Sequence record: ON645936.1
From: Escherichia phage N2
Reading direction: 5' to 3' (one strand)
Length of the DNA: 64,000 nucleotides
The translations under genes and the position numbers were made by a program. Below, piece after piece: positions 8,201 through 55,539 of the stretch. A model generated the notes under the pieces. It was not told the origin of the DNA, did no database searches, and was given only the letters and a program-made list of their open reading frames with translations. Position 1 is the stretch's first letter. Each line of letters opens with the position of its first letter.

Positions 8201-8216
8201 GGGCTTCGGCCCTTTG
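8199..8216 (+). terminator. Hairpin after uvsW
   Basis: AAGGGC-UUCG-GCCCUU hairpin; weak U-tract. Confidence 0.45.
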
Positions 8217-8225
8217 GAGAAAAAG

Positions 8226-8456
8226 ATGTTACTAGGATTTAAACAATTTCTTTATGAAGCTTCTATTGATGAATTTATGGGTAAAATTGCCTCTTGCCAA
8301 ACATTAGAAGGTCTAGAAGAACTTGAAGCTTATTATAAGAAAAGAGTTAAAGAAACTGAATTAAAAGATACTGATGACATCTCTGTCAGAGATGCTTTGG
8401 CAGGAAAAAGAGCTGAATTAGAAGATTCAGACGATGAAGTAGAAGAAAGCTTTTAA
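8226..8456 (+). CDS. UvsW.1 small acidic protein
   Basis: 76 aa from MLLGFKQ... with GGAG RBS; position after uvsW as in T4; start chosen at second ATG of track ORF. Confidence 0.6.
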   Translation: MLLGFKQFLYEASIDEFMGKIASCQTLEGLEELEAYYKKRVKETELKDTDDISVRDALAGKRAELEDSDDEVEESF

Positions 8457-17169: not shown

Positions 17170-17210
17170 AATCTACTATAACACAACACGAGGGACTTGT
17201 AAACTACATT
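17170..17210 (-). promoter_or_regulatory. T4-type early promoter (GTTTAC-N18-TATAGT), minus strand
   Basis: rc reads GTTTACAAGTCCCTCGTGTTGTGTTATAGT; overlaps 3' end of Alt-paralog ORF; near-duplicate at ~30857-30897. Confidence 0.6.
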
Positions 17211-17562
17211 TTGAACTTTTTAGTACGCGTAATAGGCATGCGTCGATTTTATACTGTTTCATTGTTTGAAGAGCAGTATCAAAAACCGCATTAATGACAC
17301 CAATTGGATTTCCACCCAAGTTTTTAAGTTTAACTAATGATAGTTTCTCATTAACACCTATCATTACGATATGCATCATTTTATCGCCTGGCTTAACGTT
17401 TTTATTTGTATCACCGCCAGAGGTGTATGTACAAAATCTAAATCCAGGAAGCACGCTTTCTTCGCCGGCTTGAATAGCAAAAATTTGAGGTATTTTATGC
17501 TTAGGATTTAAGTTAACAACCGGCGCCGAAGCGCCGTCAAATAATTCTGTAATAAGTTCCAT
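17176..17562 (-). CDS. Alt N-terminal-domain paralog (putative packaged internal protein)
   Basis: 128 aa; about 60 percent identical to first ~120 aa of adjacent Alt (MELITELFD...NLNPK.KIPQIF...CTYTSGGDTN...GDKMMHIV...QYKIDAC). Confidence 0.6.
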   Translation of the reverse strand: MELITELFDGASAPVVNLNPKHKIPQIFAIQAGEESVLPGFRFCTYTSGGDTNKNVKPGDKMMHIVMIGVNEKLSLVKLKNLGGNPIGVINAVFDTALQTMKQYKIDACLLRVLKSSKCSLQVPRVVL

Positions 17563-17565
17563 GAT

Positions 17566-19662
17566 TTATCCTTGAACGAACTTGTAAGGCATGTTTGTAA
17601 TATCTATGCAAGACGCAATAATTCCGAGAGATGATTCTGCTTTCTGTTTAACATTTGATGAAACAAATGATGCAAAGTCAACTCTGTCTTCTATTTCAAT
17701 ATCACCTGTCATTGCAACTACTTCGCCGGTTTCCATTAGACGGTCACCGTCATAAATTACTGATTCGGTGAGTTCTTCCGTAGTCATAACTTCGGCTTGA
17801 ATGAGTTTTGTATTATTAAATGTTATTCCGTCATTATTAGAAGCATCAGTTATTTTGTTAACTTTGACCATCAATCCGCGCGGTAGAATAACTTCAGCTT
17901 CTGATGCTATTCCGAGACTTCCTGGATATACAACATTAACTTTATGAGCTCCATCAATTGCCCATCCTATTTGAACTTTAACATATTCAGGATTTTCTTT
18001 ATACGCTCTTATTTCGCTTGGATTAATAGTTATTCCTTCTTCATTTTTATCAACCGTTAATTCATTGCGAGCTTCTGGTTCTAAAAGACCGATACCAGCA
18101 TGTGTAATTCCAAAACGTCCAAAAATGATAGGAGTTAAAGAAGTAGATACAAAATTTCTGAAATAGAACACTTTATTTTTAACTAGTGCTTCGTATATAG
18201 GAGCAGTCATACTTTGAGCACGATAAACTGTAATGCCTTCTGGTATACGGTCACCATTTTCAAAGGCTGAATCTAAATTATTTATCGCAGATTCAATTTC
18301 TTTTTCACTCATTACCTCATATCGTTCTGGATTGTAGCGGCCTAAAAGAAGATTATTGATGTCAGTATATCCTGCTCCACAATACTCTCTAATGCCGCGC
18401 TTTTGTGATGGAGTATATTTAGAACCATCACGGGCAATAGTAATATCAATCATTGGACCTGCACCAACTCCAGAAAAACTATAAATCATTCGTTTGAGGA
18501 ATACAGTTTTTGCTGCGTTCCAGGAATTTTTAGTTATTTCTTCCCAGACTTCATCTGACTGTCCTTTGCGGGTTTTATTATGTGTATCAAGCCAATTATC
18601 TTTATATTCTTCAAAGAATTGATTAACAGCTGCTGCGTATTTCTCTAAACATTTTATTGAAGTAGTTGGTTCATTTTTGATCGCATTAAGAATTACATCT
18701 TTAATTTTTTCAGAAACCTCATCAACCTCACTTTTTGAAACGAATTTATAGTAATGGCGAAGTTCATTTGTAGTTCCTTCGGCAATAATTTTTGCTGCCT
18801 TAGTTTTAGAAGCTAATGAATTAATTCCAAGCTTCATTTCTTCTGCTTCGGGAATTAAAGGAGCGGTAGCAGGTTTATTAAAATTGGCTGCGGTAGATTC
18901 ATACTTCTGGAATAATTCGCTTTCAAATCTAGAAGATTCTAATGATTGACTTTGTGCAATTGCTCTACGGGAAATTTTAACTTTAACGATTACAGCTTGG
19001 TCAGAACGTTTATCATTTTCTTGCGCAATAGATGCTGCAATTGCCTCATTTTTAGTTACTTGAGCTCCAGTATCTTTGTTGATATAAACATCGCCGACCT
19101 TCGATTCAACTTTAGTAAAGAGCTCGGTACTAATTTCCGGAACTCCTGGAATGTCTTCTAATGATACATTTTTGCGATGTATAAGAATATATGCATACTT
19201 TTTATCGTAATCCCAGATTTCCTTAAGAAGGACGTATCTGCCACCTGAACGACTACGGATAAGTCTATCAGCAATAACTTGAATTTGTCGAGCTTGACCA
19301 GCAGTTTTAGACTTAAGAATACGAAGCATACAAGCATCAATTTTATACTGGCGCATCGTCTGCATTGCAACAGTAAAAACTGAATTGATATAATTAATTG
19401 GGCTTGGACCGAGACCTTTTAATTTAGCAATTGAACCTTTAGCAGTTAATGTAAAAGGAACAATATGCATCATTTTATCGCCCATCTTTAAATCACGGTT
19501 AGTATCACCTCCAGATGTATAGGTACATAAACGAAAGCCCGGTTGTTCAATTGCATCATCAACATGAACTGAAAAAATTTGTGGTATTTTCTTCTTTGGA
19601 TTTAAGTTTGTAATCGGAAGAGTAGTATCTTCGTCAAATAATTCTGTAATAAGTTCCATCAT
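17566..19662 (-). CDS. alt: ADP-ribosyltransferase Alt
   Basis: 698 aa at T4 alt position; T4 Alt-like N-terminus; C-terminal region with Arg/STS/ExE-type ART elements (YRAQ, STSLT, SEAEV). Confidence 0.88.
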   Translation of the reverse strand: MMELITELFDEDTTLPITNLNPKKKIPQIFSVHVDDAIEQPGFRLCTYTSGGDTNRDLKMGDKMMHIVPFTLTAKGSIAKLKGLGPSPINYINSVFTVAMQTMRQYKIDACMLRILKSKTAGQARQIQVIADRLIRSRSGGRYVLLKEIWDYDKKYAYILIHRKNVSLEDIPGVPEISTELFTKVESKVGDVYINKDTGAQVTKNEAIAASIAQENDKRSDQAVIVKVKISRRAIAQSQSLESSRFESELFQKYESTAANFNKPATAPLIPEAEEMKLGINSLASKTKAAKIIAEGTTNELRHYYKFVSKSEVDEVSEKIKDVILNAIKNEPTTSIKCLEKYAAAVNQFFEEYKDNWLDTHNKTRKGQSDEVWEEITKNSWNAAKTVFLKRMIYSFSGVGAGPMIDITIARDGSKYTPSQKRGIREYCGAGYTDINNLLLGRYNPERYEVMSEKEIESAINNLDSAFENGDRIPEGITVYRAQSMTAPIYEALVKNKVFYFRNFVSTSLTPIIFGRFGITHAGIGLLEPEARNELTVDKNEEGITINPSEIRAYKENPEYVKVQIGWAIDGAHKVNVVYPGSLGIASEAEVILPRGLMVKVNKITDASNNDGITFNNTKLIQAEVMTTEELTESVIYDGDRLMETGEVVAMTGDIEIEDRVDFASFVSSNVKQKAESSLGIIASCIDITNMPYKFVQG

Positions 19663-19900: not shown

Positions 19901-21357
19901 AGACCAGTTACCTCATGAAAATCACCAAATACATCCTCGAATGTATTAGCTTTAGTTTTATCTTCACGTAAACGAATCGCAATCGGAAGAAATAATTTAA
20001 CGTAATCAGTGCGGCCATCAGATTTTAACCAACCGTTGCATTCGCACTCTAGAATTTTTCCAATATAATAATTTTGGTTTTCCATAATGCGAGTACGGTC
20101 AAGTTCATGTGATTTTACACCAGCTTTATCTTTTAAGCCTGAACCTGCATTGACTTTAATTTTTCCACACTCTGATTCAAGAATAAATCCACCAGCTTTA
20201 GTAGGGTCTTTACGGTGAGGATAAATTCCTACAATTTTTAAATCAACATCAATTACTTCTTTAAATTTATAGAGATTTTTTGAACGAGCATTTTCCCACA
20301 ATCCATCTGTATTTTTGAGAATAATACCTTCAAGACCTTGGTCAATATACTTTTTATAAATTACCTTAGCTTCATCTAGGTTATTTACTACTTGGTTTTC
20401 AATTAAAATTACTTTATCATATCCTGATGTCATTTGTTCTAGTTTAGAAAAACGTACATCATATTTTAAACGAAACGTCGGAAGACCGTATATTTCTACT
20501 AACGGAACATAATCCCAGACCTGAAACTTCATGCATTTGGCTTCTTTTTCGGAAATGGTTCCTTTTAAGGATTTATTGGCGATTCCATTAGAAGCAGTAC
20601 GAGATTCCGCTACTTCGGCGAATTCTTTAGCTTTGCTAATTTCAGGAGTGTCAAAAAGAAAATCTAGGCCTTCTGGTTCCTTTTCAACTTGCTCATGGTA
20701 TACCAATTCGCCATCGATTAACACGCCTTCTGGATGAATCTGGCGGGCTTCAGCAGTCATTTTGATTAACTCTTCCTTAAGAAGATCTAATCCTAGGTAT
20801 TCATTGCCAGCTCGCGATAAAAGACGAACATCATCTAATTCATCACCTCGGACTTCAGCAAAACACCGAGCTCCATCTGCTTTTAACTGCGCAAAAGCTG
20901 GAAATTTGATATTCTTACTAATGCCTTTTTCATCATAAGAACTTGCAAGCATTTGAGGTTGTTCAGGAATTAAACCTGGCCAAACTTTGTTTGCAATAGA
21001 TACTGAAGCACCGCATTCAAGGTCTCGCATCATAACTCGACGTAGTACTTCAACATCATCCTTTTTACCATCGGTGATATACCCAGTTAATTCCTCAATT
21101 GCTGCATTTCCAGTCAATTTCCGAGTAGCTAACGTAAATTCAATAAAGTCAAGCATATCGGTAATGGTCAGCATTCCAAAACTCTGGGTAGCAATACCAG
21201 GCTTAGGCCATTTCTTGATATAATACTGTAACCCACGAGAATAAGTCAGACGATATACTCGTTTAAGCAATTCATTATCTTTATTCTTTTCAAGAATTGC
21301 TTGCTTCTGCTTAGTTGATCCAATAGATGCTATTTCATTCAGAATTTTAAGAATCAT
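19897..21357 (-). CDS. 30: ATP-dependent DNA ligase gp30
   Basis: 486 aa; MILKILNEIASIGSTKQKQAILEKN... and KADG adenylation motif as in T4 DNA ligase. Confidence 0.95.
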   Translation of the reverse strand: MILKILNEIASIGSTKQKQAILEKNKDNELLKRVYRLTYSRGLQYYIKKWPKPGIATQSFGMLTITDMLDFIEFTLATRKLTGNAAIEELTGYITDGKKDDVEVLRRVMMRDLECGASVSIANKVWPGLIPEQPQMLASSYDEKGISKNIKFPAFAQLKADGARCFAEVRGDELDDVRLLSRAGNEYLGLDLLKEELIKMTAEARQIHPEGVLIDGELVYHEQVEKEPEGLDFLFDTPEISKAKEFAEVAESRTASNGIANKSLKGTISEKEAKCMKFQVWDYVPLVEIYGLPTFRLKYDVRFSKLEQMTSGYDKVILIENQVVNNLDEAKVIYKKYIDQGLEGIILKNTDGLWENARSKNLYKFKEVIDVDLKIVGIYPHRKDPTKAGGFILESECGKIKVNAGSGLKDKAGVKSHELDRTRIMENQNYYIGKILECECNGWLKSDGRTDYVKLFLPIAIRLREDKTKANTFEDVFGDFHEVTGL

Positions 21358-21489
21358 TGCTCATCCTTCAAAGTTTGGTTTACAGCTCTATTATAAATCA
21401 ATTCATCATTAAGCTCAGGCAAAGACTTATGATATGTAGTTCTAACTTTATTTCCTTGCATCCAGTGCTTGACGTAAATGAAACCTTGC

Positions 21490-21621
21490 TCTACACATTT
21501 TTAAAAATTCGTTCGTCTTTTTGAGCTCGGAATTCTGGATTGCATCTAAAAAATTGATTTACGTGACCGTAATCACGTGTAGTATTACCTTCATTTTCAT
21601 AAATAGTGTGAACGACAAACA
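21490..21621 (-). CDS. Hypothetical small protein (about 43 aa, below ORF-track cutoff)
   Basis: Own translation of minus strand: MFVVHTIYENEGNTTRDYGHVNQFF...; start overlaps upstream stop (TAATG); coordinates approximate. Confidence 0.3.
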
Positions 21622-22485
21622 TTAGAATGCTCCTTGGAAAATATTATCACCACTAGTAAATCTATTAAAATACCCTGCATCACCAGGCTTAGTATAACTC
21701 CACGTATGGAATGGATTCATATGATACGGGTGTGTATAATATGGATTATATGGATGTGTATAATATGGATTATACGGATTAAATCCAGGAGTTCTCCAGG
21801 TAGTGTTCCAGCGAAAAGAATCGTTTTTAATCATCTTTTCAATTACATCTTTTATAGCTTTTTCACTATCAAAACTTTCTTTATTTTCCTTTGGTGAAAA
21901 AAGCTTATTCTCTACATCGTTCCATGTATAAACTCGCTGAGCAGTTTTTGGAATACTGTCACGTTCCCCTCGAGCCATCCAATAAACTGGAACATTTAAT
22001 ATTTCACTCGCATGATCGCAGTGGTGAGCGAGATCGTCAATATAACAAATTACGTTATATTTCTCTTTTGCCTTTTTGAACAACTCTTCTTTTGAAGAAT
22101 CATGGCCACACATCAGTACTTCTGAGAAGGCACCAGGAAAAAGAGCATTCAAATTAAATTGACGATTCAGCAGAGCGTCAATAGAATCACCCAGTGCTGT
22201 AACAGCTACAAAATTATAATCTTCTTTTAATTTGTTAATTACACACAGAGCATCTTTATATGGAGACAAGTAACGAATAAAATCCGAACGATTGTATTTT
22301 TCAATTAACTTGACGCCAAGTTCTTCATCACAATTAAAAAGTTTACCAGGAGAAATAAATTTTTCATCTTGGATCATTTTTAAAATATGTTCCAACGGAA
22401 GATTATATTTCTGAGCAAAATAAGGAAGGCCTGATTGCCAGCTTAAGCATACTCCATCAATATCAGTTAAAATAGTAGGCTTCAT
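21622..22485 (-). CDS. HAD-superfamily phosphatase-like protein with C-terminal Pro/Tyr repeats
   Basis: 287 aa; N-terminal ILTDIDGV (DxDx[T/V] HAD motif I); tandem NPYYTHPY repeats near C-terminus. Confidence 0.65.
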   Translation of the reverse strand: MKPTILTDIDGVCLSWQSGLPYFAQKYNLPLEHILKMIQDEKFISPGKLFNCDEELGVKLIEKYNRSDFIRYLSPYKDALCVINKLKEDYNFVAVTALGDSIDALLNRQFNLNALFPGAFSEVLMCGHDSSKEELFKKAKEKYNVICYIDDLAHHCDHASEILNVPVYWMARGERDSIPKTAQRVYTWNDVENKLFSPKENKESFDSEKAIKDVIEKMIKNDSFRWNTTWRTPGFNPYNPYYTHPYNPYYTHPYHMNPFHTWSYTKPGDAGYFNRFTSGDNIFQGAF

Positions 22486-37616: not shown

Positions 37617-38348
37617 ATGAAATCTGGAATATATGCTATTATAAACACTAAAACTAATAAGCACTATATAGGAAGTGCAATTAATTTTGAAGAACGATGG
37701 AAACGACACTTTAAAGATTTAGATAATGGAAATCATCATTCAATAAAGCTGCAGCGTTCTTATAATAAGCATGGTAAAGATGCTTTCGTATGTAAAATCA
37801 TAGAAGAACTTCCATACGAAAAATCTATCATTATTGAACGTGAAAATTATTGGATGCATGAATATGACTCAAAGGAAAATGGGTATAATATAGCAGACGC
37901 ATCGTTTGGGGATACCTTATCTCATCACCCAAGAAAGCAAGAAATCCTTAATAAAATTTCAAATGCAATTAAAAATAATAATTCAAAATTATCACCAGAA
38001 GAACTTAAGCAAAAACATGGTAGACCTAGAGACATCAAAGGTAAAACTATAGAAGAACACTATGGGTTAGATCGTGCTATAGAAATAAGCAAAAAGTTCC
38101 AAGAAAGAAACGCTGCACTTAATATGAAAGGCATCAATAATCCATATTACGGACAGACGCATACCAATGAAGTTAGAAAACGAATTTCTGACTCACAGAG
38201 AGGTAAAAAGAAACCCCATCTAAGAGTAAGTATAGATGGGGTAGAATATCCAACAATAGCAGAAGCTGTGCGTCAAACCGGAATAAGCAGAAAACTTATA
38301 TCTAAAAGATGCGCTCTAGATTGCTGGGAATCATATTTATACTGCTAA
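37617..38348 (+). CDS. Free-standing GIY-YIG homing endonuclease, I-TevI-like
   Basis: 243 aa; [10 protein letters not shown]...YIGSA...ERWKRHF...SIKLQRS...IIERENYW closely parallels I-TevI catalytic domain; NUMOD3-like [14 protein letters not shown]; C-terminal HTH-like tail. Confidence 0.85.
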
Positions 38349-38582
38349 AGTTCTACATTCGTCATATTGTTTTTCCGTTAAAACAGTAATATCATAATAG
38401 CAATCAGAAGAAGTTTTAACTGTGGAAATTTTATTATCAAAATACTCACGAGTCATTTTATGAGTATAATATTTTTTGCCATAAATGATAATAGGCTGTT
38501 CTGGTCCTGGAACTTCTAACTCGCTTGGATTAGGAAGTGTAAAAAGAACGATACCAGAAGTATCTTTAAATCGTAAAATCAT
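38337..38582 (-). CDS. Hypothetical protein between td and nrdA
   Basis: Track ORF 38337..38594 trimmed to MILRFKD... start with GAGGA RBS; 3' end overlaps the GIY-YIG gene convergently. Confidence 0.4.
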
Positions 38583-38605
38583 ATATCCTCGCAATTAAAT
38601 TAAAA

Positions 38606-38917
38606 TTATACCGCCATTTTTCCTTTCAAGACACCGTGGGACTGATAATCTTTGAGAACGAAATCTTTAGGCCTGAGTTTAAGAATGTATTCCAATTGTT
38701 CTTTAGTAGAAAGATAACGGAATTTATAAGGTAATCCGCCTATTACCAGTTCACAAAGCTCTTTAGATTCACGACGCAAAATTTCTTTACATTGTTCTAC
38801 GTGATTCATATAGATATGAGTATTACCACCAGAAAATATCAAATCTCCTGGAATAAGATTACACATCTTAGCTACAATATGAACTAACGCAGCATATGAT
38901 GCAATATTAAATGGAAG
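38606..38917 (-). CDS. td: Thymidylate synthase, exon 2
   Basis: LPFNIASYA... continues exon 1 ...DVFLG to give conserved TS motif DVFLGLPFNIASYA; 103 codons. Confidence 0.9.
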   Translation of the reverse strand, partial: LPFNIASYAALVHIVAKMCNLIPGDLIFSGGNTHIYMNHVEQCKEILRRESKELCELVIGGLPYKFRYLSTKEQLEYILKLRPKDFVLKDYQSHGVLKGKMAV

Positions 38918-39171
38918 CATTATGTTCAGATAAGGTCGTTAATCTTATCCCGGAATTATATCCAGCTGCATGTCACCATACAGATCAGACTATATCTCCA
39001 TCTTGATGAAGCAAGATGTCTATCGTTTCGAGTCACTTGACCCTACTCCCCAAAGGGATAGTCGTTAGGCATTTAGTTCAAAAGAACATTTAGCACGGGA
39101 TTGTCTACTAGAGAGGTTCCCCGTTTAGATAGATTACAAGTATAAGTCACCTTATACTCAGGCCTCAATTA
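38918..39171 (-). ncRNA. Group I self-splicing intron in td, ORF-less (254 nt)
   Basis: Begins UAAUUGAGGCCUGAGUAUAAGGUGACUUAUAC... and ends ...CUGAACAUAAUG like T4 td intron; splits TS between G183 and L184; short GUUC-UUUU-GAAC hairpin where T4 has I-TevI ORF. Confidence 0.85.
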
Positions 39172-39720
39172 ACCCAAGAACACGTCAACACTTCTTTGAT
39201 ACCACTGCAAATCCAAATAGCCATTACGCACATTAAACTGATAGAACATATGACAAGGCGGTAATGCCATTTGCTTGAGTTCAGCTGGATTCCATGCAGA
39301 AACAACTTGACGTCTATCATTTGGCAGTTTTTTAATACGATCAATAACTTCTACAATTTGGTCTACACCACCAAAATCACGCCACTGTTTTCCATAAATT
39401 GGACCAAGTTCACCACTATGATATCCTAAATCTTTTGCTTGATTTTCGTAATTTTCATCCCAGACTGTTTTGCCTTGAATTAATGAATCGTGTTGAATTA
39501 ATCGTAAATCATTGACATTTGTGCTTCCTGATAAAAACCAAAGTAGCTCAGCAATGCAAGCTTTCCAGGCGAGCTTCTTAGTTGTTACTGCAGGAAAACC
39601 TTTAGTTAAATCCCAGCGTAATTTAGTACCGAACAAAGCAATTGTTCCTGTGCCTGTTCGGTCATCAGTTTCATAGCCATTTTCAAAAATGTCTTTAATT
39701 AAATCTTGGTATTGTTTCAT
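39172..39720 (-). CDS. td: Thymidylate synthase, exon 1
   Basis: 183 codons MKQYQDLIKDIFENGY... with catalytic PPCH; in-frame UAA is first intron codon. Confidence 0.9.
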
Positions 39721-39765
39721 TTAGTACCTTATATAAATTATAATACATTTTATGAAGCTAAATAA

Positions 39766-40128
39766 TCAATACGGTTTAGCATCAAATTTTCTTTCGATTT
39801 CAGGAGTGAAATATAATTCTTTACCACGTTTGGAAAAACGACCAATAATATGATAATTATTCTCATCAAACGTGATATTGCCAATATCCATAGCTTTCAA
39901 CCAAATATCGATATTTCTATCTAGTTTTATATCAAAATTCCAATACGGAGAACTATTACCGAAAATACTGCAAGCGGATTCAGTGCAATAACTGCTGCTA
40001 TAAATCTTGTCTTTGGGAACTACTAATTGATAGACGCCTTTAATAAACTGAGGACCCTGCCATTTTGGTTGTTTCGCGTCTTTTTCTAATAGAATAGGGT
40101 AATAATTAAAGTTCATATTTTCCGCCAC
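39766..40128 (-). CDS. Hypothetical protein inserted between frd and td
   Basis: 120-aa ORF; no recognisable motif; occupies junction where T4 frd and td overlap. Confidence 0.5.
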   Translation of the reverse strand: MAENMNFNYYPILLEKDAKQPKWQGPQFIKGVYQLVVPKDKIYSSSYCTESACSIFGNSSPYWNFDIKLDRNIDIWLKAMDIGNITFDENNYHIIGRFSKRGKELYFTPEIERKFDAKPY

Positions 40129-40136
40129 GCGTTATT

Positions 40137-45346: not shown

Positions 45347-48300
45347 ATGGCCGAGATTAAAAGAAAGTTCAGAGCAGAAGACGGTCTGGACGCAGGTGGC
45401 GATAAAATAATCAACGTAGCTTTAGCTGATCGTACCGTAGGAACTGACGGTGTCAACGTTGATTACTTAATTCAAGAAAACACAGTTCAACAATACGATC
45501 CAACTCGTGGATATTTAAAAGATTTTGTAATCATTTATGATAACCGCTTTTGGGCTGCTATAAATGATATTCCAAAACCAGCAGGAGCTTTTAATAGCGT
45601 ACGTTGGAGATCATTACGTACTGATGCTAATTGGACAACTGTTTCATCAGGACCTTATCAATTAAAGTCAGGCGAATCAATTTCAGTTGATACTGCAGCC
45701 GGTAATGACATTACATTTACTTTGCCATCTTCTCCAATTGATGGAGATACTATCGTTCTCCAAGACATTGGAGGAAAACCTGGTGTTAACCAAGTTTTAA
45801 TTACAGCTCCGGTGCAAAGCATTGTAAATTTTAGAGGTCAGCAAGTACGATCAGTACTAATGACTCATCCAAAATCACAGATAGTTTTAATTTTTAGTAA
45901 TCGTCTGTGGCAAATGTACGTTGCTGATTATAGCAGAGAAGCTGCAATTGTAACACCGGCAAGTCTTTATCAGGCGCAATCTAACGATTTTATCGTGCGT
46001 AGATTTACTTCCGCTGCGCCGATTAATATTAAACTTCCGAGATTTGCTAATCATGGCGATATTATTAATTTCGTCGATTTAGATAAACTAAATCCGCTTT
46101 ATCATACAATTGTTACTACATACGATGAAACGACTTCAATACAAGAAGTTGGAACTCATTCCATTGAAGGCCGTACAACAATTGACGGTTTCTTGATGTT
46201 TGATGATAATGAGAAATTGTGGAGATTGTTTGACGGGGATAGTAAAGCACGTTTACGTATTATAACAACTAATTCAAATATTCGTCCAAATGAAGAAGTC
46301 ATGGTATTTGGAGCGAATAACGGAACAACCCAAACAATTGAACTTCAACTTCCAACCGATATTTCCATTGGTGATACTGTTAAAATTTCCATGAATTACA
46401 TGAGAAAAGACCAAACAGTTAAAATCAAAGCTGCCGGTGAAGATAAAATTGCTTCTTCAGTTCAATTGTTGCAATTCCCAAAACGTTCAGAGTATCCGCC
46501 TGAAGCTGAATGGGTGACTGTTCAAGAATTAGTTTTTAACGGCGAAACTAATTATGTTCCAGTTTTAGAGCTTGCTTATATAGAAGATTCTGACGGAAAA
46601 TACTGGGTTGTACAACAAAACGTTCCAACCGTAGAAAGAGTTGATTCTTTAAATGATTCTACTAGAGCAAGATTAGGCGTGATTGCTTTAGCTACACAAG
46701 CTCAAGCTAATGTCGATTTAGAAAATTCTCCACAAAAAGAATTAGCAATTACTCCAGAAACATTAGCTAACCGTACTGCTACAGAAACTCGTAGAGGTAT
46801 CGCAAGAATAGCAACCACTGCTCAAGTGAATCAGAACACTACATTCTCTTTTGCTGATGATATTATCATCACTCCTAAAAAGCTGAATGAAAGAACTGCT
46901 ACAGAAACTCGTAGAGGTGTTGCTGAAATTGCTACGCAACAGGAAACTAATGCAGGTACTGATGATACTACAATCATCACTCCTAAAAAGCTTCAAGCTC
47001 GACAAGGTTCTGAATCATTATCTGGTATTGTAACCTTTGTATCTACCGCAGGAGCTACTCCAGCTTCTAGTCGTGAATTAAATGGTACAAACGTTTATAA
47101 TAAAAACACTAATAATTTAGTTGTTTCGCCTAAAGCTTTGGATCAGTATAAAGCTACTCCAACGCAACAAGGTGCAGTAATTTTAGCAGTTGAAAGTGAA
47201 GTAATTGCTGGACAAAGCCAAGAAGGATGGGCAAATGCGGTTGTAACGCCAGAAACGTTACATAAAAAGACATCAACTGATGCAAGAATTGGTTTAATTG
47301 AAATTGCTACGCAAAGTGAAGTTAATACAGGAACTGATTATACTCGTGCAGTCACTCCTAAAACTTTAAATGACCGTAAAGCAACTGAAAGTTTAAGTGG
47401 TATAGCTGAAATTGCTACACAAGTTGAATTCGACGCAGGCGTCGACGATACTCGTATCTCTACACCATTAAAAATTAAAACCAGATTTAATAGTACTGAT
47501 CGTACTTCTGTTGTTGCTCTATCTGGATTAGTTGAATCAGGAACTCTCTGGGACCATTATACCCTTAATATTCTTGAAGCAAATGAGACACAACGTGGTA
47601 CACTTCGTGTGGCTACGCAAGTTGAAGCTGCTGCAGGAACATTAGATAATGTTTTAATAACTCCTAAAAAGCTTTTAGGTACTAAATCTACTGAAGCACA
47701 GGAAGGTGTTATTAAAGTTGCAACTCAGTCTGAAACTGTAGTTGGAACGTCAGCAAATACTGCTGTATCTCCAAAAAATTTAAAATGGATTGTACAGAGT
47801 GAACCTACTTGGGCAGCTACTACTCTGGTAAGAGGTTTTGTTAAAACTTCATCTGGTTCAATTACATTCGTTGGTAATGATACAGTTGGTTCAACACAGT
47901 CATTAGAATTATACGAGAAAAATAGCTATGCAGTATCACCATATGAATTAAACCGTGTATTAGCAAATTATTTGCCGTTAAAAGCAAAAGCCGTAGATAG
48001 TAATTTACTGGATGGTCTAGATTCATCTCAGTTCATTCGTAGGGATATTGCACAAACGGTTAATGGTTCACTAACCTTAACCCAACAAACGAATCTGAGT
48101 GCCCCTCTTGTATCATCTAGTACTGCTACGTTTGGTGGATCAGTTTCAGCAAATAGTACACTAACCATTTCTAATACTGATGGAACAGCAACTCGTCTGA
48201 TTTTTGAGAAAGGACCTCAAACTGGAACGAACCCGGCTCAAACGATGACAGTCAGCGTGTGGGGGAATCAATTTAGTGGGGAATCAAACACAACACGTTC

Positions 48301-49219
48301 TACCGTATTTGAAGTTAGTGATGAAACATCTTATCACTTTTATTCTCAACGCGATAAAGATGGTAATATAGCATTTAGCATTAATGGTACTGTAATGCCA
48401 ATAAATGTGAATGCTTTAGGTTCTTTGAACGCGAACGGCGTTGCAACATTCGGTAGTTCAGTTACTGCTAATGGCGAATTTATCAGTAAATCGTCGAATG
48501 CTTTTAGAGCAATAAACGGTGATTATGGATTCTTTATTCGTAATGATGCTGCTAACACCTATTTTATGCTTACTGCATCTGGCGATCAGACTGGTGGATT
48601 TAATGGATTACGTCCATTATCAATTAATAATCAATCTGGTCAAGTAACGATTGGTGAAAGCTTAATCATTGCCAAAGGTGCTACTATAACTTCAGGTGGT
48701 TTAACTGTCAACTCGAGAATTCGTTCTCAGGGTACTAAAACCGCTGATTTATACACCCGTGCACCGACATCTGATACTGTAGGATTCTGGTCAATCGATA
48801 TTAACGATTCAGCTACTTATAACCAATTCCCGGGTTATTTTAAAATGGTTGAAAAAACTAATGAAGTGACTGGACTTCCATACTTAGAACGTGGCGAAGA
48901 GGTTAAATCTCCTGGTACATTGACTCAGTTTGGTAACACACTCGATTCGCTTTACCAAGATTGGATTACTTATCCAACGACCCCAGAAGCGCGCACCACT
49001 CGCTGGACACGTACATGGCAGAAAACCAAAAATTCTTGGTCAAGCTTTGTTCAGGTATTTGATGGAGGTAACCCTCCTCAGCCATCTGATATCGGTGCTT
49101 TACCATCTGATAATGCTACAATGGGGAATCTTACTATTCGTGATTTCTTACGAATTGGTAATGTTCGCATTGTTCCTGACCCAGTGAATAAATCTGTTAA
49201 ATTTGAATGGGTTGAATAA
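45347..49219 (+). CDS. 34: Long tail fibre proximal subunit gp34
   Basis: 1290 aa; late promoter 35 nt upstream; internal ...TRRG.A.IAT... sequence repeats. Confidence 0.93.
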   Translation: MAEIKRKFRAEDGLDAGGDKIINVALADRTVGTDGVNVDYLIQENTVQQYDPTRGYLKDFVIIYDNRFWAAINDIPKPAGAFNSVRWRSLRTDANWTTVSSGPYQLKSGESISVDTAAGNDITFTLPSSPIDGDTIVLQDIGGKPGVNQVLITAPVQSIVNFRGQQVRSVLMTHPKSQIVLIFSNRLWQMYVADYSREAAIVTPASLYQAQSNDFIVRRFTSAAPINIKLPRFANHGDIINFVDLDKLNPLYHTIVTTYDETTSIQEVGTHSIEGRTTIDGFLMFDDNEKLWRLFDGDSKARLRIITTNSNIRPNEEVMVFGANNGTTQTIELQLPTDISIGDTVKISMNYMRKDQTVKIKAAGEDKIASSVQLLQFPKRSEYPPEAEWVTVQELVFNGETNYVPVLELAYIEDSDGKYWVVQQNVPTVERVDSLNDSTRARLGVIALATQAQANVDLENSPQKELAITPETLANRTATETRRGIARIATTAQVNQNTTFSFADDIIITPKKLNERTATETRRGVAEIATQQETNAGTDDTTIITPKKLQARQGSESLSGIVTFVSTAGATPASSRELNGTNVYNKNTNNLVVSPKALDQYKATPTQQGAVILAVESEVIAGQSQEGWANAVVTPETLHKKTSTDARIGLIEIATQSEVNTGTDYTRAVTPKTLNDRKATESLSGIAEIATQVEFDAGVDDTRISTPLKIKTRFNSTDRTSVVALSGLVESGTLWDHYTLNILEANETQRGTLRVATQVEAAAGTLDNVLITPKKLLGTKSTEAQEGVIKVATQSETVVGTSANTAVSPKNLKWIVQSEPTWAATTLVRGFVKTSSGSITFVGNDTVGSTQSLELYEKNSYAVSPYELNRVLANYLPLKAKAVDSNLLDGLDSSQFIRRDIAQTVNGSLTLTQQTNLSAPLVSSSTATFGGSVSANSTLTISNTDGTATRLIFEKGPQTGTNPAQTMTVSVWGNQFSGESNTTRSTVFEVSDETSYHFYSQRDKDGNIAFSINGTVMPINVNALGSLNANGVATFGSSVTANGEFISKSSNAFRAINGDYGFFIRNDAANTYFMLTASGDQTGGFNGLRPLSINNQSGQVTIGESLIIAKGATITSGGLTVNSRIRSQGTKTADLYTRAPTSDTVGFWSIDINDSATYNQFPGYFKMVEKTNEVTGLPYLERGEEVKSPGTLTQFGNTLDSLYQDWITYPTTPEARTTRWTRTWQKTKNSWSSFVQVFDGGNPPQPSDIGALPSDNATMGNLTIRDFLRIGNVRIVPDPVNKSVKFEWVE

Positions 49220-49227
49220 GAGGTATT

Positions 49228-50343
49228 ATGGAAAAATTTATGGCAGAGTTTGGACAAGGATATGTCCAAACGCCATTTTTATCGGAAAGCAATTCAGTAA
49301 GATACAAAATAAGCATAGCGGGTTCTTGCCCGCTTTCTACAGCAGGACCATACGTTAAATTTCAGGATAATCCTATCGGAAGTCAAACATTTAGCGCAGG
49401 ACTTCATTTAAGAGTTTTTGACCCTTCTACAGGAGCATTAGTTGATAGTAAGTCATATGCTTTTTCGACTTCAAATGATACTACATCAGCTGCTTTTGTT
49501 AGTTTCATGAATTCTTTTTCAAACAACAGACTTGTTGCTATATTAACCAGCGGAAAGGTTAATTTTCCTCCTGAGGTAGTATCTTGGCTAAGAGCCGCGG
49601 GAACGTCTGCTTTTCCATCTGATTCTATATTGTCAAGATTTGACGTATCATATGCTGCTTTTTACACTTCTTCTAAAAGAGCTATTGCATTAGAGCATGT
49701 TAAACTGAGCAACAGAAAAAGCACAGATGACTATCAAACTATTTTAGATGTGGTGTTTGACAGTTTAGAAGACGTTGGAGCTACCGGCTTTCCAAGAAGA
49801 ACGTATGAAAGCGTTGAGCAATTTATGTCAGCGGTTGGTGGAACTAATAACGAAATTGCGCGATTGCCAACTTCAGCTGCCATAAGTAAATTATCTGATT
49901 ATAATTTAATTCCTGGTGATGTTCTTTATCTTAAAACACAGCTATACGCCGATGCTGATTTACTTGCGCTTGGAACCACAAATATATCTATCCGTTTTTA
50001 TAATGCATCAAATGGATATATTTCTTCAACACAAGCTGAGTTTACCGGGCAAGCTGGGTCTTGGGAATTAAAAGAAGATTATGTAGTTGTTCCAGAAAAC
50101 GCTGTGGGATTTACGATATATGCACAAAGAACTGCACAAGCTGGCCAAGGTGGCATGAGAAATTTAAGCTTTTCTGAAGTATCAAGAAACGGCGGTATTT
50201 CAAAACCTGCTGAATTTGGCGTCAATGGTATTCGTGTTAATTATATCTGTGAATCTGCTTCACCTCCGGATATAATGGTACTTCCTACACAAGCATCGTC
50301 TAAAACTGGTAAAGTGTTTGGGCAAGAATTTAGAGAAGTATAA
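49228..50343 (+). CDS. 35: Long tail fibre hinge connector gp35
   Basis: 371 aa at T4 gp35 position; hairpin terminator after stop. Confidence 0.9.
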   Translation: MEKFMAEFGQGYVQTPFLSESNSVRYKISIAGSCPLSTAGPYVKFQDNPIGSQTFSAGLHLRVFDPSTGALVDSKSYAFSTSNDTTSAAFVSFMNSFSNNRLVAILTSGKVNFPPEVVSWLRAAGTSAFPSDSILSRFDVSYAAFYTSSKRAIALEHVKLSNRKSTDDYQTILDVVFDSLEDVGATGFPRRTYESVEQFMSAVGGTNNEIARLPTSAAISKLSDYNLIPGDVLYLKTQLYADADLLALGTTNISIRFYNASNGYISSTQAEFTGQAGSWELKEDYVVVPENAVGFTIYAQRTAQAGQGGMRNLSFSEVSRNGGISKPAEFGVNGIRVNYICESASPPDIMVLPTQASSKTGKVFGQEFREV

Positions 50344-50344
50344 A

Positions 50345-50372
50345 TTGAGGGAGCCTTCGGGTTCCCTTTTTC
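50345..50372 (+). terminator. Intrinsic terminator after gene 35
   Basis: GGGAGCC-UUCG-GGUUCCC hairpin followed by UUUUUCUUU. Confidence 0.7.
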
Positions 50373-50374
50373 TT

Positions 50375-50382
50375 TATAAATA
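50375..50382 (+). promoter_or_regulatory. Late promoter TATAAATA (gene 36)
   Basis: Exact TATAAATA 24 nt upstream of gp36 ATG, after gp35 terminator. Confidence 0.7.
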
Positions 50383-50405
50383 CTATTAAAATAAAGGGGC
50401 ATACA

Positions 50406-51071
50406 ATGGCTGATTTAAAAGTAGGTTCAACAACTGGAGGCTCTGTCATTTGGCATCAAGGAAATTTTCCATTGAATCCAGCCGGTGACGATGTACTCTA
50501 TAAATCATTTAAAATATATTCAGAATATAATAAACCACAAGCTGCTGATAACGATTTCGTTTCTAAAGCTAATGGTGGTACTTATGCGTCAAAGGTAACA
50601 TTTAACGGCGGCGTGCAAATACCATATGCTATAAACAATACAAACCAAAGCGGTATTTATCCTGGCAATGGTGATGCTGCTACTTTTGATACAGCAAATA
50701 TTGATATTGTTTCATGGTATGGTATTGGTTTTAAATCATCACAGGGTTCAGCAGCCAGAACTGTAGTAATCAATACACGTAATGGTGATATTAGTACAAA
50801 AGGTGTTGTATCCGCTGCAGGTCAAGTAAGAAGTGATATGCCGACGCCAATTGCAGCGAATGACCTTACTAGAAAGGACTATGTTGATGGAGCAATAAAT
50901 ACTGTTACGGCAAATGCGAACTCTAGGGTGTTGCGTTCTGGTGACACTATGATTGGTAATTTAACCGCACCAAACTTTTTCTCGCAGAATCCTGCATCTC
51001 AACCTTCTCACGTTCCACGATTTGACCAAATCGTAATTAAGGATTCTGTTCAAGATTTCGGCTATTATTAA
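50406..51071 (+). CDS. 36: Long tail fibre distal connector gp36
   Basis: 221 aa, T4 gp36 length; TATAAATA 24 nt upstream. Confidence 0.9.
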
Positions 51072-51079
51072 GAGGACTT

Positions 51080-54000
51080 ATGGCTACTTTAAAACAAATA
51101 CAATTTAAAAGAAGCAAAACCGCAGGTGCACGTCCTGCTGCTTCAGTATTAGCCGAAGGTGAATTGGCTATAAACTTAAAAGATAGAACAATTTTTACTA
51201 AAGATGATACAGGAAATATCATTGACTTAAGCATTTCTGCTGGTGGTAATATCAGTGGAAATATCACTCAAACCGGAGATTATACACAGACTGGAAAATT
51301 TAATTTAATTGGTCCGCAAATTGTAGCAAGCGGTGGATATATTGAGTTTAATTATCGTACGACTGGAAGCGGCTCGTGGTCTGGTCAACACGCTGCAAAA
51401 GCTCCAATTTTTGTAGATTTGAGCTCCGCTCTTTCCACATCTGAATATAATCCTATAATTAAACAGCGCTTTAAAGATGGAACTTTTTCTGTTGGTACGT
51501 TAGTAAATGAAGGAAGTTTTAAGATTCATTATATCAATGAATCGGGAACTTCAAAATACTGGACATTTCGTAGAGATGGTGGATTTGTTGTTGATACAGG
51601 AAGTTTGACAGTATCAGATGGTAATATTTCTGCATCAGGCAATATTAACTCGGCAACTGGATTTGTTTCTGCACCACGCGTCAATACAAAAAATATTAAC
51701 TTGAGTTCTAAAACCTTTATCACGAATAATGACGCGGGTTATGACATTGTTTCTTTACCTACCTGGGTTTATAACCCACCGGCCGATGGTTCCGACAATA
51801 CTACAAATGGATTGAACTATTTGCGTAAATTACGTGCATCAAGTGCAGCAAGTATTTTCCATGAAATTGCCGATTGCCGAAAAGGTAAGCCACAAGAAAT
51901 TTCTTGGTGGACAGGCGTAGGCCCGGAATCTTTCCTATGGGCGTTTGATATCTCCGGTCGTATTACTGCAGGTAAATCTATTTCAGTAGGTCTTCCTGAT
52001 AACGGTGCAAATGGACGTTATCCTTTAGATTCTGCCATTTCTATCGGTATTGCAATTGGTGATAATGACACCGGTATTAAATGGGTCCGCGATGGCGTTT
52101 ATGACCTGATGGCTAACGGTATTTCATCCGCTACCATTTTGAACAACGGTATTAATAGTACTAAAAAATTGATGGTTGGTTATAGCCGCGATTCTGGTAC
52201 TACTTGGGATTACCCAAATAACAACCAAGCAATGTTTACTGCGCGTACCGATGTTGATGGTAATAATAACGGCGATGGTCAGACTCATATCGGTTATAAC
52301 AGTAATTCTAAAATGTATCACTATTTCCGTGGCACGGGTCGTATGTCTGTTAGCATGGGCGATGGACTTCTTGTTGAGCCAGGTATTTTAGATATTAAAA
52401 CTGGGTCTAATAGAGTTGCTATTAGAGCAGATGGTACATTTGACTCAACTCAACGTATTTCAATGCGTACGGGCTTGTTTTTAAATGGTGATGATAATAC
52501 CAATGCTTTGTCATTTAAAGCTCCTTCCGGTGTAGATGGTACCAAAACTATTAACTGGGATGCAGGCACTCGTAACGGACAGAATAAAAATACTGTTTCA
52601 ATTAAAGCATGGGGTAATGCCTTTAACTCAGTTCCCGGTATTAGAGAAACTGTATTTGAAGTATATGATTCACAAGGTTATTATTTTTATTCACAACGCC
52701 AGCGCCCAGAAGGTTCTGAAACTGTTGGGCCCGTTGTAACCCAGTTCAATGGACCAGTTAATGCTAACGGCTCTATTAGCACTGCAGGAAATCTTAAAGT
52801 TGATGGTTTAAGCACTTTAAACGGTAATGTTACAATGAAGAACGGCTTGTTTGTCCAAGGTGGTTCTTCTATTACCGGACAAGTAAAAATTGGTGGAACA
52901 GCTGATGCATTAAGAATTTGGAATGCCGAATACGGTGCTATTTTCCGTCGCTCAGAAACAGCATTACATATTATCCCGACTCCTAAAGATGCTGGTGAAA
53001 GTGGTGGAATAAGTAATCTCCGCCCATTAAGTATTAGTCTTAATAATGGTATGGTACAAATGCGTCATTCGGTTACATTAGGCGACGATGGATTAGGCGG
53101 CAATATGGTTACTATTGATAATGATAGTAAACTTGTTGTGATAACTTCTAATACCAGATTAAGCCCTAATTTCCGCATGCAAATAGGCCACTCGTCTTAT
53201 ATTGATGTTGAATGCACTAACTCTGTTCGCCCGGCAGGTGCTGGTTCGTTTGCTTCACAGAATAACGAAAATGTTCGTGCACCGTTCTATATGAATATCG
53301 ACCGTGGTGATAATAGTACTTATATTCCAATTTTGAAGCAACGTTACGTTCAAGGAGATAGTACTTATTCTATTGGCACCTTAATTTCTCAAGGAGACTT
53401 CCGCGTACATTATCACCAGGGCACTAGTACTACCGGAACTGATATAAGTTGGGAATTCCGTCGTACTGGTGACTTCCGCACACCTGGTAAAATTATTGCC
53501 GGTGCTGCTACTCTTGGCACTGATGGCAATATTACGGGTGGTTCTGGTAACTTTGCTAACTTAAACAGTACAATTGAATCACTTAAAACTGATATTGTTT
53601 CAAGTTATCCTATTGGAGCTCCAATTCCATGGCCAACGGATACTCCTCCTGACGGTTACGCTATTATGGAAGGTCAGACTTTTGATAAGTCTGCATATCC
53701 AAAGCTAGCTGTTGCATATCCTAGCGGTGTTATTCCAGATATGCGCGGGCAGACTATCAAGGGTAAACCAAGCGGTCGTGATGTTTTGAGCGCAGAAGCA
53801 GATGGTGTTAAGGCTCATAGCCATAGTGCATCTGCTTCAAATACTGACTTAGGCACTAAAACCACATCAAGCTTTGACTATGGTACGAAGAACACTAATA
53901 GTACTGGTGCTCACACTCACTCTGTAAGTGGTACAACAAGTGCTGCTGGTAACCACGCTCATCACTTAGGTCTACTATTAGTTATCGGCGATGATGCTTT

Positions 54001-54154
54001 GTACGGTTATACAACCATTGGTAACAGTCTACCTAGAACACTTGACTGGCTTGACAAAGAGACAATAAGTTCCCTAACACTAACACAACTGGTAACCATA
54101 CACACACATGGTCTGGTACTACAAGCGGTGCTGGTGACCATTCCCACTCTGTAG
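51080..54154 (+). CDS. 37: Long tail fibre distal subunit gp37, main reading frame (ends prematurely relative to conserved C-terminus)
   Basis: 1024 codons; T4 gp37-like body with HxH boxes ([21 protein letters not shown]); final ~30 codons look out of frame. Confidence 0.88.
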
Positions 54155-54282
54155 GTATTGGTGCTCATACCCACACGGTAGCGATTGGTTCGCATGGTCA
54201 TACTATCACTGTAAATAGTACAGGTAATACAGAAAACACGGTTAAAAACATTGCTTTTAACTATATCGTTCGTTTAGCATAA
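54055..54282 (+). pseudogene. 37: gp37 C-terminal segment in the -1 frame (His-box needle repeat and conserved ...[11 protein letters not shown] terminus)
   Basis: Frame 1 reads ...[70 protein letters not shown] then hairpin terminator; joins main frame only via 1-nt shift near 54046-54070. Confidence 0.75.
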
Positions 54283-54306
54283 GGAGAGGGGCTTCGGCCC
54301 CTTCTA
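54283..54306 (+). terminator. Hairpin after gene 37
   Basis: GGGGC-UUCG-GCCCC hairpin directly after the [10 protein letters not shown] stop. Confidence 0.6.
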
Positions 54307-54309
54307 AAT

Positions 54310-54861
54310 ATGAAAATCTATCATTATTATTTTGACACAAAAGAATTTTACAAAGAAGAAAATTACAAACCGATTAAAGGTCTTGGTCTTCCAGCTCATT
54401 CAACAACTAAAAAGCCTTTAGAACCTAAAGAAGGATACGCAGTTGTATTTGATGAACGTATTCAGGATTGGGTTTATGAAGAAGACCATCGCGGCAAACG
54501 GGCATGGACTTTTAATAAAGAAGAAATTTTTATAAATGACATTGGAAGCCCAGTTGGTATAACTTTTGATGAGCCTGGCGAATTTGATATATGGACTGAT
54601 GATGGTTGGAAAGAAGATGAAACATATAAACGGGTTTTAATTCGTAATAGAAAAATTGAAGAATTATATAAAGAATTCCAAGTATTGAGTAATATGATCG
54701 AAGCTTCAGCTGCAAATAAAAAGGAAAAATTCTATTATCAAAACCTTAAACGGTTCTTTGCTCTTTTAGAAAAGCATGAGCATTTAGGTGGTGAATTCCC
54801 TGCATGGCCTGAAAAAGAACGGAAGCCTTGGTATAAGCGTTTATTCAAGCATTACGTATAA
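54310..54861 (+). CDS. 38: Tail fibre assembly chaperone gp38 (T4 type)
   Basis: 183 aa; MKIYHYYFDTKEFYKEENYKP... matches T4 gp38 as recalled. Confidence 0.92.
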   Translation: MKIYHYYFDTKEFYKEENYKPIKGLGLPAHSTTKKPLEPKEGYAVVFDERIQDWVYEEDHRGKRAWTFNKEEIFINDIGSPVGITFDEPGEFDIWTDDGWKEDETYKRVLIRNRKIEELYKEFQVLSNMIEASAANKKEKFYYQNLKRFFALLEKHEHLGGEFPAWPEKERKPWYKRLFKHYV

Positions 54862-54864
54862 ATA
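54857..54864 (+). promoter_or_regulatory. Late promoter TATAAATA (holin t), inside 3' end of gene 38
   Basis: Exact TATAAATA 19 nt upstream of t ATG with AAAGGAGGG RBS. Confidence 0.7.
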
Positions 54865-54882
54865 TCTTAAAAAGGAGGGTCT

Positions 54883-55539
54883 ATGGCAGCACCTAGAATA
54901 TCATTTTCGCCCTCTGATATTCTATTTGGTGTTCTAGATCGCTTGTTCAAAGATAACGCTACCGGGAAAGTTCTTGCTTCCCGGGTAGCTGTCGTAATTC
55001 TTTTGTTTATAATGGCGATTGTTTGGTATAGGGGAGATAGTTTCTTTGAGTACTATAAGCAATCAAAGTATGAAACATACCGTGAAATTATTGAAAAGGA
55101 AAGAACTGCACGCTTTGAATCTGTCGCCCTGGAACAACTCCAGATAGTTCATATATCATCTGAGGCAGACTTTAGTGCGGTGTATTCTTTCCGCCCTAAA
55201 AACTTAAACTATTTTGTTGATATTATAGCATACGAAGGAAGATTACCTTCAACAATAACTGAAAAATCACTTGGAGGATATCCTGTTGATAAAACTATGG
55301 ATGAATATACAGTTCATTTAAATGGACGTCATTATTATTCCAACTCAAAATTTGCTTTTTTACCAACTAAAAAGCCTACTCCCGAAATAAACTACATGTA
55401 CAGTTGTCCATATTTTAATTTGGATAATATCTATGCTGGAACGATAACCATGTACTGGTATAGAAATGATCATATAAGTAATGACCGCCTTGAATCAATA
55501 TGTGCTCAGGCGGCCAGAATATTAGGAAGGGCTAAATAA
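54883..55539 (+). CDS. t: Holin T
   Basis: 218 aa; single N-terminal TMD (VAVVILLFIMAIVWY) and large periplasmic domain; TATAAATA 19 nt upstream. Confidence 0.92.
   Translation: MAAPRISFSPSDILFGVLDRLFKDNATGKVLASRVAVVILLFIMAIVWYRGDSFFEYYKQSKYETYREIIEKERTARFESVALEQLQIVHISSEADFSAVYSFRPKNLNYFVDIIAYEGRLPSTITEKSLGGYPVDKTMDEYTVHLNGRHYYSNSKFAFLPTKKPTPEINYMYSCPYFNLDNIYAGTITMYWYRNDHISNDRLESICAQAARILGRAK

Follow-up and report, generated by a model that had tools for sequence, protein, structure and literature searches.

A one-base frame break in the long tail fibre gene 37 of the deposited Escherichia phage N2 sequence

Gene 37 encodes the distal subunit of the long tail fibre, and in the deposited sequence of Escherichia phage N2 (record ON645936.1) its reading frame closes before the conserved C-terminus of the protein, which continues in another frame. 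This arrangement raises the question of whether a base is missing from the phage or from the record, which base that is, and whether the two frames could be joined during expression. We addressed these points by comparing the locus with T4 and with relatives that share its receptor-binding tip.

Reading frames of gene 37 and its surroundings

We analysed the whole 64,000-nt stretch of DNA, hereafter the window, a Tequatrovirus (T4-like) segment reaching from gene 23 to rIIB. Searched by tblastn with T4 proteins, the window holds nearly all T4 genes in order at 90–100% identity, and its best phage matches in GenBank are 94–97% identical over 16–25 kb. The T4 proteins also placed genes 34, 35, 36, 37, 38 and t consecutively at 45347–55539 (tblastn). 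Gene 37 of the window thus occupies the position in the 34-35-36-37-38-t cluster that belongs to the T4-type long tail fibre distal subunit. The gene and its break comprise the following parts.

51080–54154, plus strand: gene 37, long tail fibre distal subunit, as written; 992 native codons, then 32 out-of-frame codons, then TAG
54052–54054, plus strand: TGA, the last stop in the −1 frame and the 5' limit for joining the two frames of gene 37
54055–54282, plus strand: 3' end of gene 37, displaced into the −1 frame; 75 codons and TAA, with four of the seven His-x-His motifs and the conserved C-terminus
54056–54057, plus strand: site of the missing base; A-G-A in relatives (the first AGA Arg codon of ...DRRDNK...), A-A in the window

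The frame break is real in the deposited sequence. As an earlier note, made from the sequence alone, had claimed, the main frame ends at 54154, giving an ORF of 1024 aa that closes with a TAG at 54152–54154. The note's placement of the C-terminus in the −1 frame from about 54055 also holds: the −1 (+2) frame that encodes the conserved gp37 C-terminus is blocked by stops at 54022, 54034, 54043 and 54052 and becomes open only from 54055 up to the TAA at 54280–54282. One inserted base produces a gene 37 ORF of 1067 aa, in which the break falls at codon 993 with 74 codons remaining after it, matching the roughly 75 codons that had been given as the distance to the C-terminus. A T4-type gp37 is a single uninterrupted ORF; that of the window stops at 54154 and leaves its last 75 codons in the −1 frame. 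The note had limited the join to about 54046–54070, and its description of the break is accurate. ORF logic permits a join anywhere in 54055–54151, and it is homology to the intact relatives that pins the site at 54056/54057.

The break is not a chance pattern, because the repaired C-terminus can be aligned with its T4 counterpart from one end to the other and the segment downstream of the break is 100% identical to that of phage sutha. Once repaired, the last 225 residues of gp37 align over their full length with the T4 gp37 structure (PDB 2XGF; domains D10 and D11; E=4.6e-96), in which collar, needle and tip are the equivalent parts. The Collar domain PF07484 was found at residues 846–893 (43.5 bits, against a Pfam cut-off of 24), and seven His-x-His motifs lie at residues 913, 945 and 959 and at residues 1007, 1021, 1030 and 1039. 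T4 gp37 likewise has seven such motifs, three before the tip and four after. The T4 combination of collar, seven-motif needle and conserved C-terminus appears in the window only once the base is restored, and the ORF as written has three of the seven motifs. Identity to T4 gp37 is 98% in the last 53 residues and ~53% over residues 1–933, and the window copy further differs by its interruption through a one-base deletion. Queried with the repaired 225-aa C-terminus, a protein search found E. coli prophage tail fibres and nothing else; these have the collar and needle in common with the window gp37 at no more than 69% identity, carry different tips and do not distinguish R from K at the junction. 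A monomer structure model of such an intertwined trimer would be uninformative for the break.

From these alignments, gene 37 would normally be one continuous 1067-codon ORF whose product is a distal tail-fibre protein of the T4 type carrying a rare tip variant. As in T4 gp37, the repaired chain would pass three His-x-His iron sites on its way to the receptor-binding tip and four more on its return to the collar; it would be folded with gp38 and gp57A. The gene that follows encodes the first of these two proteins.

54283–54309, plus strand: gene 38 initiation region; Shine-Dalgarno GGAG at 54283–54286 and hairpin AGGGGC-TTCG-GCCCCT at 54287–54302, with the ATG at 54310
54310–54861, plus strand: gene 38, T4-type tail-fibre assembly chaperone; 183 aa, intact

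The predicted gp38 is 94.5% identical to T4 gp38 and has an exact copy in a contig described below (L017); it is a T4-type chaperone and not a T2-type adhesin. Where the earlier note saw a terminator after the gene 37 stop, we find instead the split Shine-Dalgarno hairpin of gene 38. In T4 this hairpin brings the distant Shine-Dalgarno sequence near the ATG (PMC3014915). The hairpin at 54287–54302 is not an intrinsic terminator, since no T-run lies 3' of it.

Relatives with the same tip and the identity of the missing base

Between the third and fourth His-x-His motifs, the window sequence differs from the T4 gp37 tip and is longer (HHLGLLLV(N/I)...). This tip type is rare. We found it in four GenBank phages, sutha (PV245934), BYEP01 (OR757453), AV122 (OR352952) and SHBML-50-1 (NC_031085), and in one SRA-derived contig of 4.6 kb (Logan contig SRR26820250_63884, here L017), which was recovered by exact look-up of the window gp38. 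Scans of IMG/VR, JGI and GTDB did not contain the tip type.

Gene 37 is uninterrupted in all five of these relatives. Their protein at the junction is LDWL(D/N)RRDNK, with N in the Logan contig, and extends as LDWL(D/N)RRDNKFPN. The junction DNA is GACAGAAGAGAC in sutha, SHBML-50-1 and AV122, GACAGACGTGAT in BYEP01 and GACAAAGAGAC in the window. Over a shorter context, sutha, SHBML-50-1, AV122 and the Logan contig have CAGAAGAG, BYEP01 has CAGACGTG and the window has CAAAGAG.

Two different insertions restore the frame. An A inserted after 54058 yields ...LDWLDKRDNK..., and a G inserted after 54056 yields ...LDWLDRRDNK..., making the junction exactly identical to that of the four GenBank phages. 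Loss of a single G aligns GACAGAAGAGAC with the window's GACA-AAGAGAC and accounts for the window in one step, while shortening of A4 to A3 needs a G>A change plus a deletion, which makes the A repair less parsimonious. Most parsimoniously, then, the lost base would be the G of the AGA (Arg) codon 993, and the deletion probably did not remove an A from an A4 run. The AAA run is likely the product of the deletion and not its cause. The inferred ancestral context, CAGAAG, contains no homopolymer, and the longest run at the site in the window is A3. The earlier proposal that one extra A in the AAA run would restore a continuous ORF is correct as to the frame, but the more parsimonious loss of G weakens the label of a homopolymer miscall. 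The missing base should be sought as a G, not as an A.

The 226 coding nt that follow the gap (54057–54282) are identical to those of sutha (236 nt compared, into the hairpin), so the displaced segment shows no decay. Against L017, which carries the last 598 gp37 residues in one frame, these 226 nt contain one differing site, private to L017. The full comparison with this contig, the closest relative (53552–54923, 1372 nt), gave five differences. L017 alone carries two of them (54053 and 54176); the other three occur only in the window and comprise the missing G at 54056 and the following pair.

53985–53991, plus strand: two window-private non-synonymous tip substitutions, AAC>ATC (A>T, N>I) at 53985 and GGT>GAT (G>A, G>D) at 53991

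The two substitutions change the VNGG present in all five relatives to VIGD and sit 65–71 nt upstream of the missing base. Three window-private changes within 72 nt of the 1372-nt comparison have p ~0.008 under uniform scatter, calculated for three events placed at random in 1372 nt that are otherwise identical save for the two L017-private differences. This clustering suggests that the tip of the stock was either truly variable or locally mis-assembled, and it may point to genuine mutation or selection acting on the tip. The rarity of the tip type and the two private non-synonymous changes support the earlier view that this region differs from T4 and forms a host-range segment; the rare tip, together with the change from VNGG to VIGD, may help host-range work.

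The frameshifted allele itself was found in no other assembly in the collections searched. The junction with any 3–6-base filler had no match in IMG/VR, JGI metagenome contigs or GTDB genome contigs, and exact-protein look-ups with the 1024-aa truncated gp37 and with gp34 returned no record in the collection searched. The tip joined to the out-of-frame tail, used as query in a word-indexed protein search, gave no candidate; the index evidently misses this tip type. Exact look-up of gp36 led to two further contigs (L015 and L016), one of which has a T2-type fibre and the other of which stops 112 nt before the break, so that neither bears on the junction.

The question of recoding across the break

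Full-length gp37 might be made from the gene as written if the two frames were joined by recoding, either through a −1 ribosomal frameshift near GAC AAA GAG or through transcriptional slippage. Such an event, programmed or tolerated, would lower or regulate fibre production. The frame overlap at 54055–54151 allows a −1 shift in principle, and tRNA-Lys on AAA is slip-prone, as is known from work on dnaX. Programmed −1 frameshifting in dnaX and lambda G/GT likewise involves a pair of overlapping frames, of which the −1 frame encodes the downstream part. However, gene 37 of the window has none of the slippery heptamer, the stimulatory structure and the conservation of those systems. None of the three frames contains an X XXY YYZ heptamer within 54038–54150, where homopolymers of 4 or longer are also absent, and −1 re-pairing of tRNA-Lys from AAA would reach CAA. 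The RNA of the 102 nt downstream is less stable than its shuffles (MFE −17.6 kcal/mol; mean of the shuffles −21.8; z=+1.38), with 189 of 200 shuffles at least as stable.

Additionally, the two-frame arrangement is not conserved, gene 37 being one ORF in five of five same-tip relatives, and a shift 3' of codon 993 would insert out-of-frame residues into conserved sequence. Each fibre takes three full-length chains, for which background frameshifting would supply too little. We consider recoding very improbable. Independent initiation of the C-terminal fragment was also rejected, because the displaced segment (54055–54282) contains no in-frame ATG, GTG or TTG.

The earlier note had offered three explanations: a homopolymer or assembly error, a genuine mutation and slippage-dependent expression. 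The first two are both still in contention, whereas the third finds no heptamer, no stable fold and only intact relatives. The break is best read as an unprogrammed loss of one base from a T4-type gene that has a rare tip but is otherwise ordinary and was functional until recently.

A probable consensus error or a possible genuine deletion

The T4 protein indicates what the break would cost. The T4 gp37 chain runs from the collar D10 (residues 811–881) through the needle to the tip and back, residues 1010–1026 rejoining the collar, and along the needle His-x-His motifs bind seven iron ions (PMC6957217). The broken codon of the window aligns with T4 Y953/R954 and sits between the third and fourth motifs. 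The break removes four of the seven His-x-His iron sites along with the returning strand, the residues equivalent to T4 1010–1026 that go back to the collar domain. The T4 amber phages R954am, G964am and G978am, which are conditional lethals, came from a screen for non-plating on sup− hosts, and the iron-binding histidines of T4 gp37 are required for function (PMC6957217). Given these data and the loss of the motifs and the collar strand, truncation at codon 993 should abolish fibre assembly, as the earlier note had expected of a genuine frameshift, and the allele could hardly be the majority genotype in a propagated phage.

We infer, with moderate confidence, that the base was lost by error in the deposited consensus and is present in the infectious phage. 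The intact gene in five independent same-tip relatives, the undecayed 226 nt and the essential nature of the gene all argue for an error, as does a second private one-base deletion, of the kind made by indel-prone platforms.

21357–21622, minus strand: gene 30.1 (DUF3045); one base lost from T5A6, the window having T5A5 at about 21497–21502

The extra base in the gene 30.1 run is present in all 59 full-length records, sampled from 497 matching phage genomes. This second deletion has its own precedent, however. Phage contingency loci, recently proposed for T2 and T4, involve ±1 frameshifts driven by SSRs of at least 6 bases, and SSRs are reported to be under-represented in tail-fibre genes (bioRxiv 10.1101/2025.10.21.683753). 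The change in gene 30.1 resembles these single-base frameshifts in T-even genes. Its run (T5A6 to T5A5) falls within the contingency-locus definition of at least 6 units, whereas the gene 37 site, with its ancestor CAGAAG, has no SSR and falls outside it. The gene 30.1 deletion could be a genuine slip of this type (bioRxiv 10.1101/2025.10.21.683753) and hence offers weak support for an error in gene 37.

Against a consensus error stand the clean assembly, a private load like that of its peers, the position of the lost base outside a homopolymer and its clustering with the tip substitutions. The window has no ambiguous bases, and its private load of 551 substitutions and 8 gaps does not exceed that of BYEP01, P8 or T4. 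An ORF scan with T4, BYEP01, P8 and sutha found two broken conserved genes in the 64 kb, gene 37 and gene 30.1. With two such genes and a private indel load at or below that of its peers, we rejected the idea of an assembly riddled with indel errors. As the ancestral CAGAAG holds no homopolymer, the change would not be a classic length miscall. An error could have come about if a base was dropped in the A/G-rich stretch, or if a position was mis-polished in a tip-heterogeneous stock, for example one with a mixture of AGA and AAA. Such a mixture polished into a deletion would explain both the break and the clustering.

The same observations bear on a second reading, in which the sequenced DNA had truly lost the base through a very recent null mutation, leaving a gp37 unable to trimerise and particles that lack functional distal half-fibres. 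We regard this as possible but doubtful. The otherwise ordinary quality of the assembly and a lost base outside any homopolymer suit it, and the cluster with two private tip changes (p ~0.008) looks as if the tip were mutating under selection. T-even phages yield frameshift variants at measurable frequency, and the lack of downstream decay is equally compatible with a very recent event and with an artefact. Yet gene 37 is essential, and stops at the equivalent T4 positions block plating on non-suppressing hosts. Genuine frameshifts between T4 sublines have come to light only in non-essential genes, the site is not an SSR of at least 6 of the kind already under-represented in tail-fibre genes, and the allele is in no other assembly searched. 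A null genome could become the consensus only in special cases, such as complementation or phenotypic mixing at high multiplicity, an uncultured or metagenomic source, or a late origin in the DNA preparation.

A one-base deletion in a related fibre gene does have a counterpart in lambda. The C-terminal part of lambda stf is related to T4 gp37, and a gp38/Tfa-type chaperone gene lies next to it. In lambda PaPa, stf is said to be split by a one-base deletion, reportedly described by Hendrix and Duda in 1992. The resulting layout, a fibre gene split by one base with a chaperone gene 3' of it, is that of gene 37 in the window. In contrast to the T4-type long fibres, which are essential, the lambda side fibres are dispensable, and the lambda mutation is genuine, having become fixed in a laboratory strain.

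It is highly unlikely that the deletion is real in a viable lineage, whether through a low-level non-canonical −1 shift at GAC-AAA-G that yielded sufficient full-length gp37 or through a fibre-null genotype kept frequent by complementation in a mixed population. In that event the null would have arisen together with the two neighbouring tip substitutions during rapid diversification of the tip, and the locus, if this were true, would be an on/off adsorption polymorphism in an essential T-even fibre gene.

The biological interest of the break is low; it counts for annotation and for use of the fibre sequence. In annotation, gene 37 is best kept as a single gene, marked either as disrupted or as carrying a suspected one-base error; splitting it into a truncated fibre and an orphan fragment should be avoided. 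Were the deletion genuine, the record would represent a defective genome, making host-range or therapeutic inferences from the fibre gene unsafe.

Two other apparent breaks in the window were rejected. The 503-aa uvsW with a separate uvsW.1 is the annotated layout in phages P8 and BYEP01 as well, and td has an intron. A T-run difference in an intergenic region at ~25575 is common to other phages too.

The receptor-binding tip of gene 37 and its downstream hairpin

The tip of the long tail fibre distal subunit encoded by the window belongs to a rare type, which turned up in four GenBank phages plus a single Logan contig. A pattern scan of IMG/VR, JGI metagenome contigs and GTDB genome contigs did not return this tip type. 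Tail fibres of E. coli prophages share the collar and needle with the window gp37, at no more than 69% identity, but carry other tips. The features of this region are as follows:

53939-54110: rare gp37 tip type, also carried by sequences L001, L002, L013, L014 and L017 (Logan contig SRR26820250_63884)
53985 and 53991: two non-synonymous substitutions in the receptor-binding tip, private to the window
54283-54309: hairpin AGGGGC-UUCG-GCCCCU, located after the stop of gene 37 and before the ATG of gene 38

The tip motif reads VIGD in the window, whereas all five relatives with the same tip have VNGG. The single-base deletion in gene 37 lies 65-71 nt downstream of these two private substitutions, which could reflect altered host range, or a tip that is heterogeneous or mis-assembled. 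The hairpin that follows gene 37 is the 'split Shine-Dalgarno' initiation structure of T4 gene 38; a terminator was rejected because no T-run lies 3' of the hairpin.

A frame break in gene 30.1 and a spurious one in uvsW

Two further genes were analyzed with respect to frame:

21357-21622, minus strand: gene 30.1 (DUF3045), frame-broken by an indel at about 21497-21502
6689-8453: uvsW (503 aa), then a separate uvsW.1 frame

In gene 30.1, a T5A6 run has become T5A5 through the loss of one base, which is present in all 59 full-length records sampled among 497 matching phage genomes. The run reaches the minimum of six repeated bases that has been proposed for phage contingency loci. The 'frameshift' at uvsW is false, arising in T4 comparisons because the T4 RefSeq record fuses uvsW and uvsW.1 into 587 aa while the window has two frames. 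The same two-gene layout is annotated in the related phages P8 and BYEP01.

Gene content relative to T4

When the whole window was compared with T4, the homing-endonuclease genes segD, segE, segG, mobE and I-TevIII had no window counterpart, nor did nrdB.1, nrdA.1 and cd.4. Additionally, frd.2, frd.3 and pseT were unusually divergent (64-83% identity). The td region differs as well:

38357-40132: td gene region, with an intron lacking the I-TevI ORF

In the window td, a deletion at about 39075-39088 has removed the region of the T4 intron ORF. A 243-aa ORF with 46% identity to I-TevI adjoins nrdA on the opposite strand (37617-38348), and an additional 120-aa ORF lies between td and frd (39766-40128).

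Lastly, the window alt gene (17566-19662) shares just 69% identity with T4 Alt. According to its record, T4 carries alt.-2 and alt.-1 as the two parts of an old, partial duplication of alt that a stop interrupts, whereas the window counterpart is unsplit, a single unbroken ORF of 128 aa (17176-17562, minus strand).
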